Assembly (NCBI GenBank): GCA_937997485.1
Contig: CALKTH010000016.1
Location: 3,669-67,668 of the forward strand
Direction of reading: 5' to 3'
From: an uncultured Acidimicrobiales bacterium
GTDB taxonomy: Bacteria > Actinomycetota > Acidimicrobiia > Acidimicrobiales > SZUA-35
DNA: 64,000 bases
The stretch's first letter is position 1, and each line of letters opens with the position of its first letter. Both the position numbers and the translations under genes were made by a program. Under the pieces are notes generated by a model, which saw only the letters and a list, made by a program, of their open reading frames with translations, did no database searches and was not told the DNA's origin. Positions 1-4,682 of this stretch are shown piece by piece.

Positions 1-389
1 TCGATTCGACGCCGCTGTCGCCGCCAACGGTTGATCGTGCGTGGACTCGGAGTCTCGGTTGCTGCGATTTCGGCCAAGAGGTCGCGGTATTCGGCGTCGC
101 GGGCCTCCCTCATCTTCTGTGCAAGCTCGTTGCTGTGGCGACGCCCGGATGGAGTTGCGATCCACACGATGGCGTCGCCGCCGGCCTCGACCACGGTGGC
201 GGCGACCCACTCGAGGTGCTCTTTGGTGCGCGCGTCATTTGGCAGGGCGACCAAGCCGTCTCCGACTTGGTCGGCGCCGAGTTCTTTGAGTTTGCGCCAG
301 ACCGCGATCCGCGGGGTCGACGGCTCACGGGGGATTCGATAACTAAGCAGCACCCATTCGTGGACTGGTTGCGCAACCATGGTTGCCAT
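1..389 (-). CDS. chrB: ChrB-domain chromate resistance protein (partial; 3' end runs off the left window edge)
   Basis: My own translation of the minus strand from ATG at 389-387 gives MATMVAQPVHEWVLLSYRIPREPSTPRIAVWRKLKELGADQVGDGLVALPNDARTKEHLEWV... The frame is open to the window edge, so it is absent from the ORF track. The YRIPREPS..R..VWR.L...GA pattern is typical of the ChrB N-terminal domain. The gene is divergent from chrA. Confidence 0.7.
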   Translation of the reverse strand, partial: MATMVAQPVHEWVLLSYRIPREPSTPRIAVWRKLKELGADQVGDGLVALPNDARTKEHLEWVAATVVEAGGDAIVWIATPSGRRHSNELAQKMREARDAEYRDLLAEIAATETPSPRTINRWRRQRRRI

Positions 390-403
390 TCTACCATAGC
401 TTG

Positions 404-1801
404 ATGATGCAACCACGGTTACACCGCAATTCGGATCGGGCGGCTCGGCCTGGGGACTCGATTCGCTCCCGGGACTGGATCTCGGCCTGGTCGACGGTCG
501 CTGCGAATAGCTTCGGCGGACCGGCCGGGCAGATCGCGGTGATGCATGACGAGATCGTGGTTCGGCGGCGGTGGGTGGGCGAACGACGGTTTCTGCACGC
601 ACTCAACTACTGCATGCTGTTGCCGGGTCCCGAGGCCCAGCAGTTGGCCACCTACCTCGGCTGGCTTCTACGAGGTCCGACGGGGGGCCTGTTCGCGGGT
701 GCGCTGTTCATCCTCCCTGGCTTCGCTTCGATCATGGTGCTCAGCATCCTTTTCGCCGCCTACGGAGATCTGACCTGGGTGACCGGCCTGTTCTTCGGGA
801 TCTCCGCCGCGGTGATCGCTGTGGTGGCCAATGCGGTGCTCCGCATCGGACGTCGCGTGATCAAGAACCGTGCGATGTTGGCCATTGCCGGTGCCGCATT
901 CGTGGGGATCTTCGTCTTCGAGCTGCCGTTTCCGCTCATCGTCGCCGTCGCCGCCTCGATCGGACTGGTGGGCGGGCGGGTCAGGCCAGAAGTGTTCAAT
1001 TTGATCCAGGGCCACGACGAGTCTTCCGTCGCCGACGAACACGACGTGCTCATCGGTGATCAGGACATTGCACTCGGTCGGCCCTCGTGGGGGCGAGCGC
1101 TCCGAGTGCTCGCCATCGGTCTCGGGCTCTGGTTCGGACCGATCATCGTGCTTGTGGTCTGGCTGGGTGAGTCGTCGGTCTTCTTCGATGTTGCCTGGTT
1201 CTTCTCGACTGCCGCTGTGCTCACCTTTGGGGGCGCCTACTCCGTTCTTGCCTTCATCTCACAGGAGGCCGTCAACAGCTTCGGATGGCTCGAGCCAGGC
1301 GAGATGATCAGTGGCCTCGGCATGGCCGAAACCACCCCCGGCCCCCTCATCCAAGTCGTCCAATTCGTCGGGTTCATGGGCCCTTATCGTGACCCCGGCT
1401 CGCTTTCCCCACTTCAAGCCGGCATCTCTGGTGCCGTTATCGCCACGTGGGTCACTTTCGTTCCGTCGTTTCTCTGGATCTTCCTCGGCGCCCCGTTCAT
1501 CGAACACCTCCGCGGCAAACCTGCCCTCACCTCGGCCCTCTCGACCGTCACCGCAGCGGTGGTTGGTGTGGTTCTCAACCTGACGATCTGGTTCGCCCTC
1601 TTCACGCTGTTCGAAACCGTTGCCGAACGACGCTGGTACGGAGCGCTCCTCTATGAACCAGCGCTCTCGTCGCTCGACTGGGCGGCGGCCGCAATCGCCG
1701 CCGGCGCCGCCATTGCCATCTTCCGATTCCAGACCCCGACCCTGAGAGTCATCAGCCTCGCAGCAGTCGCGGGTGTCGCCTATCAATTCCTCGTTGCCTA
1801 G
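404..1801 (+). CDS. chrA: chromate ion transporter (CHR family)
   Basis: ORF 383..1801. It carries FGGPAGQIAVMHDEIVVRRRWVGERRFLHALNYCMLLPGPEAQQ and a second repeat, FGGAYSVLAFISQEAV...GLGMAETTPGPL, i.e. the duplicated CHR domain, and is polytopic. Start moved to ATG 404 to avoid overlapping the chrB start; exact start is uncertain. Confidence 0.88.
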   Translation: MMQPRLHRNSDRAARPGDSIRSRDWISAWSTVAANSFGGPAGQIAVMHDEIVVRRRWVGERRFLHALNYCMLLPGPEAQQLATYLGWLLRGPTGGLFAGALFILPGFASIMVLSILFAAYGDLTWVTGLFFGISAAVIAVVANAVLRIGRRVIKNRAMLAIAGAAFVGIFVFELPFPLIVAVAASIGLVGGRVRPEVFNLIQGHDESSVADEHDVLIGDQDIALGRPSWGRALRVLAIGLGLWFGPIIVLVVWLGESSVFFDVAWFFSTAAVLTFGGAYSVLAFISQEAVNSFGWLEPGEMISGLGMAETTPGPLIQVVQFVGFMGPYRDPGSLSPLQAGISGAVIATWVTFVPSFLWIFLGAPFIEHLRGKPALTSALSTVTAAVVGVVLNLTIWFALFTLFETVAERRWYGALLYEPALSSLDWAAAAIAAGAAIAIFRFQTPTLRVISLAAVAGVAYQFLVA

Positions 1802-1814
1802 AACGGAACCAACC

Positions 1815-2219
1815 ATGACCATCAATGTCCTCTTCCTATGCCCGCACAACGCGGCCAAGAGCGTCGCCGCCGCGGCCTTCTTCGCCCGGGACGCCAAGAA
1901 CCGAGGGCTCGCCGTCAAGACGTCGACCGCAGGAACCGACCCCGACACTCACGTCCTCCCCGTCGTTCGTGAGCGACTCGAAACCGAAGGCCTGCCCGTT
2001 GATCGGCCCTCACGCAAGGTGACCGACCAGAACCTCTCCAACGCCGATGTCATCATCAACATCGGATGCAAACTCGACGCCCTCCCCGCACCCGGACCAG
2101 TACACGACTGGCAAATCCCGAACTTCAGCGACGACCCACAGGCAGCATTCGCCGCGCTCGAAAGCCACACCACCAAGCTCGTCAACCAACTCGCCAGCCG
2201 TCCAGGCACGACCGGGTGA
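1815..2219 (+). CDS. low-molecular-weight phosphatase / ArsC-like family protein
   Basis: MTINVLFLCPHNAAKS is the CX5(K/R)S P-loop of the LMW-PTP/ArsC fold, and the size is about 134 aa. It lies immediately downstream of chrA. Start chosen at the internal ATG (MTINV). Confidence 0.7.
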   Translation: MTINVLFLCPHNAAKSVAAAAFFARDAKNRGLAVKTSTAGTDPDTHVLPVVRERLETEGLPVDRPSRKVTDQNLSNADVIINIGCKLDALPAPGPVHDWQIPNFSDDPQAAFAALESHTTKLVNQLASRPGTTG

Positions 2220-2470
2220 GGAGGCTCGGGGCCTTCGTCATCGAGAAGATCACGCTCGAGCTCGTGCTCAACGGCGCGTGCGACGAAGCCGCTCAGGCCA
2301 CGAACACCGACGCGGACCCTTCCCGCGCTCTGCCAGAGTCTCCTCAACACTCACCGACCACTCCCGAACAGCCATGATGGCCGTAGTCGCATTCAGCGTG
2401 AAGTGTCGCGTTTGACCGAAGGAGGTGTCCCTGCGCTCACCAGCACGACAACTTCGTCGAACGGTCTCCC

Positions 2471-2549
2471 CTACTGAATCCGCACGCCGGAGATGGCTCG
2501 GCTGATCACCAACTGCTGGATCTGCTCGGTGCCCTCGAAGATGTCGAAG
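2471..2549 (-). pseudogene. orphan 3'-terminal fragment of an acyl-CoA dehydrogenase gene (duplicate of 3468..3546)
   Basis: The 79 nt match 3468..3546 with 6 mismatches. They encode the identical peptide FDIFEGTEQIQQLVISRAISGVRIQ plus stop. There is no upstream ACAD-like reading frame. Confidence 0.8.
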
Positions 2550-2696
2550 GTCCTCCCCGAGTGTCCACGCAATGTCGTTCTGTGCCGCTGAGCAGGAAGT
2601 GCTCGTGTTCGGCGTCCACACCGTGACCTTGGATGACGCCTCGTGCCACCAGTTCCTAGGGACAAAACTAGGGACACCCGAGAGTCCGTCACCCGC

Positions 2697-3077
2697 TCAG
2701 ATGACTTCGACGGAGACATAATCAGCGCGCGCTGCGAGCGCCTCGATATCGGCTCGATCGCCAGTCAGAACGGTGCCGCCCGGCTCGGCCAGCGCCACGA
2801 CGAGCGCATCCACAGCCGAACCGGCCCCTGAGCGGCGGCGGAGTTCCGCCGCACGTCGCGCAACTGCCTCGCTGACGGTCGACTCGATCATGCAGGTCTT
2901 GAGAAATCGGTGAGTGTTCGCATCCCGGCTGGAATTGCCGTGAAGCGACTCGACAAGCACCACGGTTGGCACAATTGGCGGCCACAGCCCATCGGATGTC
3001 AGTGCCCGGATAATCGCAAGCGACGTTCTCGTTCGGGCAGCCAAGCGCGAGAGCCCTCCGCTGTCGAGAACGAGCAC
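2697..3077 (-). CDS. vapC: PIN-domain toxin (VapC-like) of a type II toxin-antitoxin pair
   Basis: 126 aa with an N-terminal MLVLDSGGL acidic residue and internal and C-terminal acidic residues typical of the PIN fold. A 2-nt gap separates it from the upstream small RHH gene. Confidence 0.75.
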   Translation of the reverse strand: MLVLDSGGLSRLAARTRTSLAIIRALTSDGLWPPIVPTVVLVESLHGNSSRDANTHRFLKTCMIESTVSEAVARRAAELRRRSGAGSAVDALVVALAEPGGTVLTGDRADIEALAARADYVSVEVI

Positions 3078-3079
3078 AC

Positions 3080-3328
3080 TCAGCTGACTTGTTGGAGCGA
3101 TCGCTCGCGAATTCGCCGTGCGATTGCATCGGCACTCGACTGCACCCGTTGGCTTGGTTCGCCGACTTCAGCGGCCAGTTCCTCGAGGTACCGGGCCGTT
3201 TCATCGAGGGCGTCTTGACGCTCCAGCTCGGCCCGAAGCGCGATCTGCAACAGTTCTGATGCCGGAAGGCCGCGCCGCTTCAACTCGTCGTGCAGTTCGT
3301 CCGGCAGGTAGACCTGAAGTCTCGGCAT
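3080..3328 (-). CDS. ribbon-helix-helix (CopG/ParD-like) antitoxin
   Basis: MPRLQVYLPDELHDELKRRGLPASELLQIALRAEL is a classic RHH N-terminus (beta strand plus two helices). It sits directly upstream of the PIN gene. Start at the internal ATG 3328, 7 nt downstream of a TATAGT box. Confidence 0.72.
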   Translation of the reverse strand: MPRLQVYLPDELHDELKRRGLPASELLQIALRAELERQDALDETARYLEELAAEVGEPSQRVQSSADAIARRIRERSLQQVS

Positions 3329-3360
3329 ACGTCTAACTATACGCCTATCATCACAGGCGT
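3328..3360 (-). promoter_or_regulatory. candidate leaderless promoter plus operator of the TA pair
   Basis: On the minus strand, TATAGT (3341..3336) lies 7 nt before the ATG. The inverted repeat ACGCCT-N8-AGGCGT (3341..3360) overlaps the -10 box. Confidence 0.4.
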
Positions 3361-3467
3361 GCAAAGAATCCTGTCGTGACTACGGCGGCTCTGCGCGCAG
3401 AGGTACACCTCATTTGACGAACGCAGTGTCCCTGGGAACGACAATCACGCAGTCGAAGAATGCGGGC

Positions 3468-4682
3468 CTACTGAATCCGCACGCCGGAGATGGCTCGGGA
3501 GATCACCAGCTGCTGAATTTGCTCGGTGCCTTCGAAGATGTCGAAGATCTTGGCATCACGATGCCAGCGCTCCACGGGGTACTCACGGGTGTATCCGTAG
3601 CCACCGAGGATCTGGATCGCACGCTCGGTGCTGTGCACTGCGACTCGACCAGCCTTCAGTTTCGCCATCGAGCCTTCGGCGTTCTTGAACTGCTTCTGCT
3701 TGCCCAGCCAGGCGGCTCGACGCACGAGCAGCCGGGCGGCGTCGATCTCGGTGGCCATGTCGGCGAGCATGAACGCGATCGACTGGTTCTCGATGATCGC
3801 CCGACCAAAGGCCTTGCGCTCCTTCGCATACTCGAGCGAGTACTCATACGCCGCACGAGCGATACCGAGCGCCTGGGCGCCAACGGCGGGGCGGGTGGCC
3901 TCGAACGTCTGCATGGCGGCTTGCGAGTTGCCGCTCTTGCCTTCCTTCACGCGGGCGATGCGCTCGTCGAGCTTGTCCTTGCCGCCGAGGAGGCAGCGAC
4001 CGGGCACTCGCACGTCGTCGAGTACAACCTCGGCAGTGTGGCTGGCGCGGATGCCGTGCTTCTTGTATTTCTGGCCCTGACTGAGGCCGGGCGTGTTCGG
4101 CGGGATCACGAAGCTGGCGTGGCCCTTCGAGCCAAGCTCGGGCTCAACCACGGCGACCACGACGTGGATGTCGGCGATGCCGCCGTTGGTAATCCATGCC
4201 TTGGTGCCGTTGAGCACCCACTCGTCCGTCGCCTGGTCGTACTTCGCCCGGAGGCGGTAGCCGCCAACGTCAGAACCAGCATCGGGCTCAGAGGCGCAGA
4301 AGGCACCAAGGGCGATCTTGTCGGGTGTGCCATAGCACTGGGGCACCCATTCCATGACCTGCTCGCCCGTGCCGGAAGCGGCAATGCCAGCAGCGGCGAG
4401 GCCGGTACCCATGATGGCCATGCCGAGTCCGGCGTCGCCCCAGAACATCTCCTCGAGCGCGATCATCATCGACTGGCCGGTCGGGTCGTTCATCATCATC
4501 TCGGCCATGAATTCCCAGCCGTAGAGACCGATCTGAGCGGCCTCTTCCACGAAGGGGAAGGGGAACTCTTCGCGCTCGTCCCACTCTTCGGCGATCGGAC
4601 GCATGGAGTTCTCGGCGAAATCATGGATCCACTTCTGGAGCGTGATCTGGTCTTCGGTGAGGGCGAGTGAGAACTCAGTCAT
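3468..4682 (-). CDS. acyl-CoA dehydrogenase
   Basis: About 404 aa from MTEFSLALTEDQ, with GGAG upstream. The sequence is ACAD-like throughout (WITNGGIADIHVVVA, AAYEYSLEYAKERKAFG, QILGGYGYTREYPVERWHRDAKIFDIFEGT). Confidence 0.9.
   Translation of the reverse strand: MTEFSLALTEDQITLQKWIHDFAENSMRPIAEEWDEREEFPFPFVEEAAQIGLYGWEFMAEMMMNDPTGQSMMIALEEMFWGDAGLGMAIMGTGLAAAGIAASGTGEQVMEWVPQCYGTPDKIALGAFCASEPDAGSDVGGYRLRAKYDQATDEWVLNGTKAWITNGGIADIHVVVAVVEPELGSKGHASFVIPPNTPGLSQGQKYKKHGIRASHTAEVVLDDVRVPGRCLLGGKDKLDERIARVKEGKSGNSQAAMQTFEATRPAVGAQALGIARAAYEYSLEYAKERKAFGRAIIENQSIAFMLADMATEIDAARLLVRRAAWLGKQKQFKNAEGSMAKLKAGRVAVHSTERAIQILGGYGYTREYPVERWHRDAKIFDIFEGTEQIQQLVISRAISGVRIQ

Follow-up and report, generated by a model that had tools for sequence, protein, structure and literature searches.

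Integrative elements of the ICESt1/ICESt3 type accrete in tandem at the 3' end of the fda gene of Streptococcus thermophilus (Pavlovic et al., 2004, cited from PMC5704250). According to the same source, elements that have lost their integration and transfer genes while keeping both attachment (att) sites, attL and attR, are termed cis-mobilisable elements (CIMEs), and new elements can enter a resident att site, giving tandem arrays (PMC5704250). At the icd gene of Escherichia coli, e14 and phage 21 supply a substitute C-terminal coding segment and leave the original end behind as the orphan pseudogene icdC; the icd and icdC ends differ mostly by conservative changes, and excision of e14 fuses the gene again to its orphan end (PMC13626634; Hill et al., 1989, cited therein). 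Here we analyse a comparable locus in a window of 64,000 nucleotides (contig CALKTH010000016.1, positions 3,669 to 67,668, assembly GCA_937997485.1) from an uncultured Acidimicrobiales bacterium, where a small cassette carrying a toxin-antitoxin (TA) pair lies between two copies of the end of an acyl-CoA dehydrogenase (ACAD) gene. The repeated gene end is very probably the core att site of a family of integrative elements directed at the 3' end of ACAD across the Acidimicrobiales, and the window cassette is a non-autonomous member, or a remnant, of an integrase-bearing family.

The locus resembles the fda elements (PMC5704250) by its association with tyrosine integrases, its use of the 3' end of a protein-coding gene and its tandem att arrays. 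It differs from the fda CIMEs by its target (ACAD), its hosts (uncultured Acidimicrobiales), the size of its units (0.8-1 kb), many of which carry only a TA system, its arrays of at least five cores, and by a mobilisation that is here putative. With e14 at icd it shares a housekeeping enzyme gene whose 3' end is replaced by an element-borne substitute and whose own end is displaced as an orphan; unlike e14, a 15-kb cryptic prophage with its own integrase, the window unit is a 0.9-kb integrase-less cassette within an array.

Islands at the 3' ends of tRNA and tmRNA genes likewise have an att core that overlaps a conserved gene end and is regenerated by the element; unlike theirs, the core described here is protein-coding, so that divergence between copies shows as synonymous change. 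In the superintegrons of Vibrio, small promoter-bearing TA cassettes are interspersed in the arrays and are thought to prevent large deletions. The window cassette is similar in being a small promoter-bearing TA unit in a site-flanked array, and unlike integrons it comes with no IntI, attI or attC hairpins, its sites being phage-type att sites of about 250 bp that include a gene end. A literature search found no paper on the ACAD 3' end as an integration site in Acidimicrobiia.

The ACAD gene end is present twice in the window

A repeat search of the window revealed an 83-nt direct repeat at positions 2470-2552 and 3467-3549, with 92% identity between the copies. A sequence-only reading of the window had reported this repeat as 79 nt with six mismatches, to which one and three flanking bases can be added. 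The minus-strand translation is the same for either copy, FDIFEGTEQIQQLVISRAISGVRIQ-stop, which is the last 25 residues of ACAD. The copy at 3467-3549, a segment also repeated in relatives, closes an intact ACAD gene of 404 aa (3468-4682, minus strand; four Pfam domains, Acyl-CoA_dh_N/M/1/2), which we take as the target of the element family; this copy would be a gene-terminal, attL-like core made of the last 25 codons and the stop. The copy at 2470-2552 (minus strand) is an orphan, as had been claimed: no ACAD-derived sequence was found upstream of its codon F(-25), and the boundary of its homology with ACAD is sharp at codon -25. In the arrangement that we propose, it is both attR of a first cassette (cassette 1) and attL of a second (cassette 2).

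The six differences between the copies fall in five codons and are all synonymous, a TCC versus AGC serine among them, so that the codon comparison agrees with what the sequence-only reading had stated. When six substitutions were introduced at random, the peptide remained unchanged with P = 1.25e-4 (2,000,000 trials). Weaker homology between the copies extends about 60 nt beyond the stop codons, to ~2409 and ~3411, and the blocks CAGGGACAC and TTCG(G)TCAAA are common to both of these stretches. The core starts with the inverted repeat CTTCGA-CATCT-TCGAAG, whose halves could plausibly be core-binding sites on either side of the crossover.

Orphan ACAD ends and integrase genes recur in related genomes

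Of the 41 relatives, 34 have a full-length ACAD orthologue that aligns end to end (65-93% at the amino-acid level), and upstream of it lies an acyltransferase gene in synteny. Downstream of ACAD, no synteny was found among relatives, the same-genus genomes G006 and G001 included. Orphan ACAD ends were observed 0.8-15 kb downstream of ACAD in these relatives (numbered here with the prefix G, their contigs with C and individual loci with L). One orphan core was present in G005 (at 1.5 kb), G014 (12 kb), G016 (6.2 kb) and G018 (3 kb), two in G006 (at 15.4 kb, then 3 kb further) and three in G020. In G122, which belongs to another family, two units come after ACAD, one of 0.8 kb and one of 3 kb, and both terminate in a core. 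More broadly, the core pattern was detected in 131 of 401 sampled genomes of the order, about 28 of which have at least two copies, often on one strand of one contig and 0.8-30 kb apart. The 3' end of ACAD would thus serve repeatedly as a landing pad in an uncultured order of actinobacteria. One of these ~28 genomes, G311, was discarded: the two cores 309 bp apart at G311:C37:85467-85807 (L079) are the duplicated edges of a scaffold gap of Ns.

Integrase genes stand directly after a core and arm in G014 and, twice, in G020 (Pfam Phage_integrase, E=2e-20 and 1e-21 for the two intact examples), and integrase remnants occupy the equivalent place in G016, G017 and G018. The product of the gene that follows core and arm in G014, G020, G016 and G017 starts with MASIRERRSGVWEV... 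and ends with ...LRVYAHAVE. The integrase-bearing element of G014 (L032, contig C5, 1-12100) carries a complete type I restriction-modification system (HsdR/S/M), and those of G020 (L033, contig C71, 1-6400) carry a TrwC-like relaxase and a ParD antitoxin. By virtue of the restriction-modification system in G014 and the relaxase in G020, the element family includes defence islands as well as elements resembling integrative and mobilisable elements (IMEs); the likeness to IMEs concerns one integrase-bearing member of G020.

Comparison of 13 orphan/intact pairs from eight genomes showed 74 synonymous and five non-synonymous differing codons, a signature of purifying selection. This excess indicates that the copies diverged while serving as functional ends of ACAD, and such divergence would be predicted if every element brings a substitute end that the gene adopts upon integration. 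The 'synonymous-only' duplicate of the window would then be explained as the footprint of site-specific integration, each copy having served as a working gene end.

Two gene-end copies in direct orientation and 1 kb apart could also result from a tandem duplication of ACAD in which the downstream copy decays, with the TA pair inserted between. We regard this as very improbable. In more than 30 orphan copies, drawn from many genera, the match to ACAD breaks off abruptly at one and the same codon, no ACAD-derived sequence precedes any of them, and the copies are flanked by conserved arm motifs and integrase genes; moreover, decay predicts non-synonymous changes, and 74 of the 79 differing codons are synonymous. 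Homology reaching into the gene body and relaxed selection, both expected of a decaying tandem duplicate, were not seen. A second ACAD gene decaying upstream of the orphan, which the sequence-only reading had named as the hallmark of such a history, occurs in no relative.

Architecture of the proposed att sites

The sequences around the cores contain the conserved tandem motif TCCCTAS-N4-RTCCCTAS, and in relatives a tandem motif ATCCCTAC-N4-ATCCCTAC lies shortly after the ACAD stop. Every orphan is preceded, about 105-130 nt off, by a tandem motif, cores are flanked by motifs on both sides, and all orphans begin at the same codon (F/Y/H-DIFEGTEQ). In the window, the tandem arm-type motif takes the form GTCCCTAG-TTTT-GTCCCTAG (2656-2679, minus strand, period 12), and this is its sole copy in the genome. 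The 9-nt direct repeat CTAGGGACA noticed earlier at 2656 and 2668, with the same period of 12, is real and can now be recognised as a variant of the tandem arm motif of the family.

Between this motif and the orphan core lies a conserved spacer (P-arm; 2553-2655, minus strand), which is 79-85% identical to the segment preceding four orphan cores of G020. We also considered the stretch 2550-2655 as a remnant of an integrase N-terminus and rejected this, as it corresponds to the conserved non-coding P-arm spacer common to the cassettes. At the other extremity, homology defines the left end of cassette 1 (3376-3466, minus strand), which resembles a P'-arm and in which the arm motif recurs in inverted form, as CCAGGGACA, at 3427-3435. 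It is homologous both to the sequence that follows the orphan core and to the left ends of G020 cassettes with other cargo.

We scanned one genome per species (596 Gb) for exact matches to the 19-mer motif of the window, TCCCTAGTTTTGTCCCTAG. Nineteen loci were recovered, 13 of them from Acidimicrobiales metagenome-assembled genomes (MAGs), on which the motif occurs 15 times. At 14 of these 15 places an ACAD core lies about 105-120 nt after the motif, the exception being a truncated copy in G019 (L053). Judged by its sequence, this layout of motif and core would be that of the attP site of a tyrosine recombinase, with arm-type repeats, a core matching the gene end and a second arm next to int. 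A strict division of the arms into an 'A-type', found with integrase genes, and a 'G-type', found without, was tried and abandoned, as integrase-bearing units of G020 and L047 end in a G-type arm.

The putative toxin-antitoxin pair of cassette 1

Cassette 1 is complete and occupies 918 bp between the two cores. As the sequence-only reading had proposed for a vapC-like/RHH pair, open reading frame (ORF) and Pfam analyses found that this interval contains only an RHH-like and a PIN-like ORF, both on the minus strand. The former (3080-3328, 82 aa) would encode a VapB-like antitoxin; its match to RHH_5 is weak and below the cut-off (E=0.0027), covering the N-terminal strand only, and 81 of its 82 residues are identical in the copy on G020 contig C5. 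It ends 2 nt before the start of the PIN gene, and the RHH/PIN pairing is kept in all homologous loci. The PIN-domain gene (2697-3077, 126 aa) would encode a VapC-like toxin, with a Pfam PIN match (E=1.4e-4) of 22.9 bits against a cut-off of 23.6 bits. A profile built from 20 PIN homologues matches VapC15 of M. tuberculosis (4chg, E=5.8e-4), and residues D5, E43, D90, D107 and D110 are invariant among these homologues. Searches of a protein collection returned 3433 homologues of the 126-aa PIN family, nearly all of exactly 126 aa and with an 82-aa partner. Few of them reach the Pfam PIN threshold, so the family is under-annotated.

Upstream of the pair, a promoter can be predicted from sequence at 3329-3364 (minus strand), with a -35 box TTGCAC (3364-3359), a 17-nt spacer and a -10 box TATAGT (3341-3336). 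The ATG follows the -10 box by 7 nt, as in a leaderless transcript, and an inverted repeat CGCCT-N8-AGGCG, a candidate operator, overlaps the predicted promoter, which is conserved in the G020 copy. With two intact ORFs, conservation of the predicted promoter and operator and no variation in the acidic residues, the TA pair is probably active, although its domain matches are weak.

A truncated second cassette follows the orphan core

The sequences that follow the two cores of the window (3466-3411 and 2469-2405) belong to a single family of cassette left ends, also found after G020 cores, which indicates that a second cassette begins after the orphan. Its left end (2405-2469, minus strand) carries CAGGGACAC at 2425-2433 as well as TTCGGTCAAACGCGAC, and is collinear with positions 2641-2720 of an array at the start of G020 contig C5 (L050, G020:C5:1-8000). 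Beyond it lies an RHH antitoxin gene (2237-2375, minus strand) that matches a gene of L050 and is both truncated and interrupted by a 1-nt frameshift (MAVREWSVSVEETLAER / frameshift / GLSGFVARAVEHELERDLLDD). In L050 this second RHH gene is intact (2752-2982, 76 aa); a PIN gene comes next (Pfam PIN, E=7e-9), the two genes spanning 2752-3383, and after it an arm and another core.

Of cassette 2, the window retains the first ~230 nt. The match to L050 does not extend beyond 2237, at a distance of 18 nt from where the coding sequence ends in a convergent gene that resembles low-molecular-weight protein tyrosine phosphatase (LMW-PTP) and ArsC, and which comes after chrB and chrA; this abrupt end beside the LMW-PTP/ArsC-like gene indicates that the array was truncated there. 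The orphan is therefore a core internal to an array, followed by the left end of the truncated cassette 2, and not the native gene end with its native flank that the earlier interpretation implied. In line with this, the empty site which that interpretation predicted, ACAD followed directly by the left flank of the window, was found in none of the relatives searched, and what had been taken for the flank of the orphan is the second cassette.

Horizontal spread and cargo

The segment 3375-2237 of the window is collinear with 1747-2901 of G020 contig C5 at 85% nucleotide identity, with a common order of TA promoter, RHH, PIN, arm, spacer, core, left end and 5' part of the second RHH. G020 is of a different genus from the window genome. 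Nucleotide identity between the two is 94% for the RHH gene, 91% for the PIN gene and about 80-85% for the non-coding parts of the block, compared with 80% for ACAD and 65% for the acyltransferase gene; chromosomal intergenic DNA gives no alignment. ACAD identity with the same-genus G006 is only 83%. As the TA genes share 91-94% across genera where ACAD shares 80%, the two-cassette block moved horizontally.

This comparison also bears on a possible artefact, namely that the duplicated end was made by a chimeric join in a MAG. Such repeats do break assemblies elsewhere (the cores of G004, and L075, which starts exactly at a core). Here, the copies differ at six positions and both lie inside one 74-kb contig, and the order cassette-core-cassette was assembled independently in another MAG, that of G020, so that an artefact is scarcely credible.

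Other copies of the inter-core segment were looked for, as the sequence-only reading had suggested. Its TA pair also lies in ACAD arrays of related genomes and metagenomes (G019, G020, L073, L074 and L075); the assembled genome itself contains no further copies of the cassette or of either repeat copy. The closest PIN homologues (at least 87% identity) are in ACAD-core arrays, in G019, G020, L073, L074 and L075. On metagenome contig L073 the order is ACAD, a Doc unit, then a window-type TA pair; in L074 it is core, TA, arm, and in L075 core, AbiE, TA, arm. G019 is the one case of the TA pair at the ACAD locus without the repeat, an arrangement that the sequence-only reading had set against its own proposal. 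There, an arm is present and the core is deleted, and the retained arm motif gives the locus the look of a secondary deletion. That all relatives of the PIN protein reside in att cassettes was considered and rejected: a core is present at one of 71 metagenome loci and at none of three long-contig contexts.

TA systems of type II or IV occur in about half of the 16 small units examined, and comprise three kinds of VapBC, MazEF (PemK), Phd/Doc (Fic), HigBA and AbiE; ParD is present at the end of a larger unit. Other cargo includes a TrkA-like channel, a beta-lactamase-fold protein, a LysR regulator with a hydrolase, a DUF4143 ATPase and an NAD-binding dehydrogenase, and a helix-turn-helix protein is also carried by cassettes with the same ends. 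L050 has five cores in 8 kb and carries, among others, VapBC (in two units), Phd/Doc and a TrkA-like K+ channel; degeneration is seen in several of its cores, in the form of a 9-nt insertion, of amino-acid changes and, in one core, of a truncation. This array may be the continuation of that on G020 contig C71. Three cores were found in L060 and two each in L047, L049 and L055. In G122 (L077, G122:C1, 2716-6700), an identical 40-nt flank GGGCACTGCAGGCCACGAGATGGACCGCCGGAGATGATCT precedes both orphan cores, a third flavour of element end, and the cargo includes a DUF433 gene beside a PIN-like gene.

Proposed origin and mobility of the cassettes

We propose that the attP site of these elements comprises the tandem arm motif (TCCCTAS-N4-RTCCCTAS), then, at a distance of about 105-130 nt, a copy of the 25 terminal codons of ACAD with the stop, and a short downstream arm. 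A phage-type tyrosine integrase would recombine this arm-core-arm site with the 3' end of ACAD, so that the 25 codons borne by the element become the end of the gene, which stays intact, and its former end is moved away from it and becomes an orphan. Successive integrations and internal deletions would produce tandem arrays of att-flanked units, among which those that lose int would persist as att-flanked cassettes, movable only with an integrase from another element. The window would then be a reduced array: ACAD, cassette 1 with its VapBC-like pair, the orphan core and the stump of cassette 2. Addiction modules resist being lost, which is probably why the TA pair has persisted, and the pair may stabilise the array.

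The earlier suggestion of a site-specific insertion that brought its own replacement 3' end is thus upheld, by orphans that start at the same codon in many relatives, by the arm motifs and by the adjoining integrases. The companion suggestion of a self-sufficient mobile cassette made only of a TA pair did not hold, the window cassette being a non-autonomous member or a remnant of an integrase-bearing family. It is flanked by the 83-nt repeat with about 60 nt of weaker homology, and other elements share its arm motif and spacer in conserved form; inside the unit there are no genes for integration or transfer, and integrase-bearing relatives (G014, G020) are found at the same site. This structure fits the CIME definition and the ICESt1/ICESt3 accretion model as published (PMC5704250).

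The sequence-only reading had seen no integrase or transposase, and for the integrase this was borne out: the interval holds no ORF apart from RHH and PIN, and no cognate integrase was found in the assembled genome, a 93%-complete MAG, where the best match is 27% identical and lies on contig C22. The gene concerned (C22:242235-243311) encodes the only tyrosine recombinase of this genome with any similarity (26-27% identity) to the ACAD-site integrases. The genome contains two cores and one arm motif only. The integrase is likely, though not proven, to be absent from this genome, and with none in the assembly the window cassette would currently be stranded, movable only through the integrase of an incoming element.

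Several observations weigh against interpreting the repeat as an att core of such elements. The integrase could lie in the part of the genome missing from the 93%-complete MAG. The window arm motif GTCCCTAG differs from the ATCCCTAC found beside most integrase genes, which makes its recognition by those integrases an assumption. The Pfam matches of both the RHH and the PIN protein are below the curated cut-offs, and NCBIfam gave no match that would name either of them. Finally, more distant relatives of the TA pair (identity of 85% or below) have ordinary chromosomal surroundings that lack att features, which indicates that the TA module is no inherent part of the cassette lineage and was taken up by it.

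The lack of an integrase in the assembled genome also agrees with another route of arrival, in which the ACAD end and the two-cassette block came as one piece by homologous recombination from an array-bearing Acidimicrobiales strain, with ACAD as the anchor and the att structure inherited from the donor. The 3' region of ACAD, at 80-88% nucleotide identity, would suffice for anchoring, and the order cassette 1, core, cassette 2, the same as in G020 contig C5, suggests that the block travelled as a unit. However, no second anchor is evident, the distal end being a truncation beside unrelated chr/ars genes, and composite arrays can also move by site-specific recombination between their outer att sites (PMC5704250). 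We consider this route unlikely; it alters only the way in which the structure arrived and not what the structure is.

If the repeat is an att core as we propose, the ~1-kb cassettes could be decayed elements or, alternatively, maintained satellites that carry only cargo, are integron-like in function and keep complete att sites under selection, being shuttled in trans and enriched in array-stabilising TA systems. Seven cassettes of 0.8-1.0 kb have conserved ends, unrelated cargo and no integrase fragments; arrays reach at least five cores in 8 kb (G020 contig C5) and seven cores in G004, about half of the 16 small cassettes hold TA modules, and the block has spread between genera. Against this, the decay of integrase-bearing elements combined with recombination between arrays could give the same picture, integrase remnants remain inside some units (G018), and several orphan cores of the long array L050 are degenerating. 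Such a satellite class is possible, and we put it forward tentatively. It is with similar reserve that we raise the idea of an integron-like system of different parts in the Acidimicrobiales, in which a family of phage-type tyrosine integrases, with the 25 terminal codons of ACAD as its site, would shuttle integrase-less cassettes of ~1 kb that have complete att sites, hold largely TA and other defence modules, build up in arrays and pass between genera, these being kept as a class of which the window VapBC cassette would be one unit. An integron gene cassette in the strict sense was rejected, since the neighbouring integrases are phage-type with an arm-binding architecture and the repeats, unlike attC, consist of gene-end cores accompanied by tandem arm motifs. 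TA-rich arrays of small cassettes offer a place to study how addiction modules outlive the elements that carried them, and bear on whether cassette systems other than integrons exist.

Flanking genes and assembly of the locus

The truncated cassette abuts a block of chrB, chrA and LMW-PTP/ArsC-fold genes (window 1-2219), which was found downstream of ACAD in none of the relatives examined. In view of this absence, the block may itself have been acquired, or may mark the deletion that truncated the array.

Fragmented assemblies break at att cores. In the same-genus G004, seven cores are on short contigs (C443, C476, C498, C505, C528 and C802), and one Logan contig (L075) begins exactly at CTTCGACATCTTCGAAGG. 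Arrays at the ACAD locus are probably under-assembled in MAGs, and for annotation, short ACAD 'pseudogenes' and contig breaks at this locus are best read as candidate att cores.

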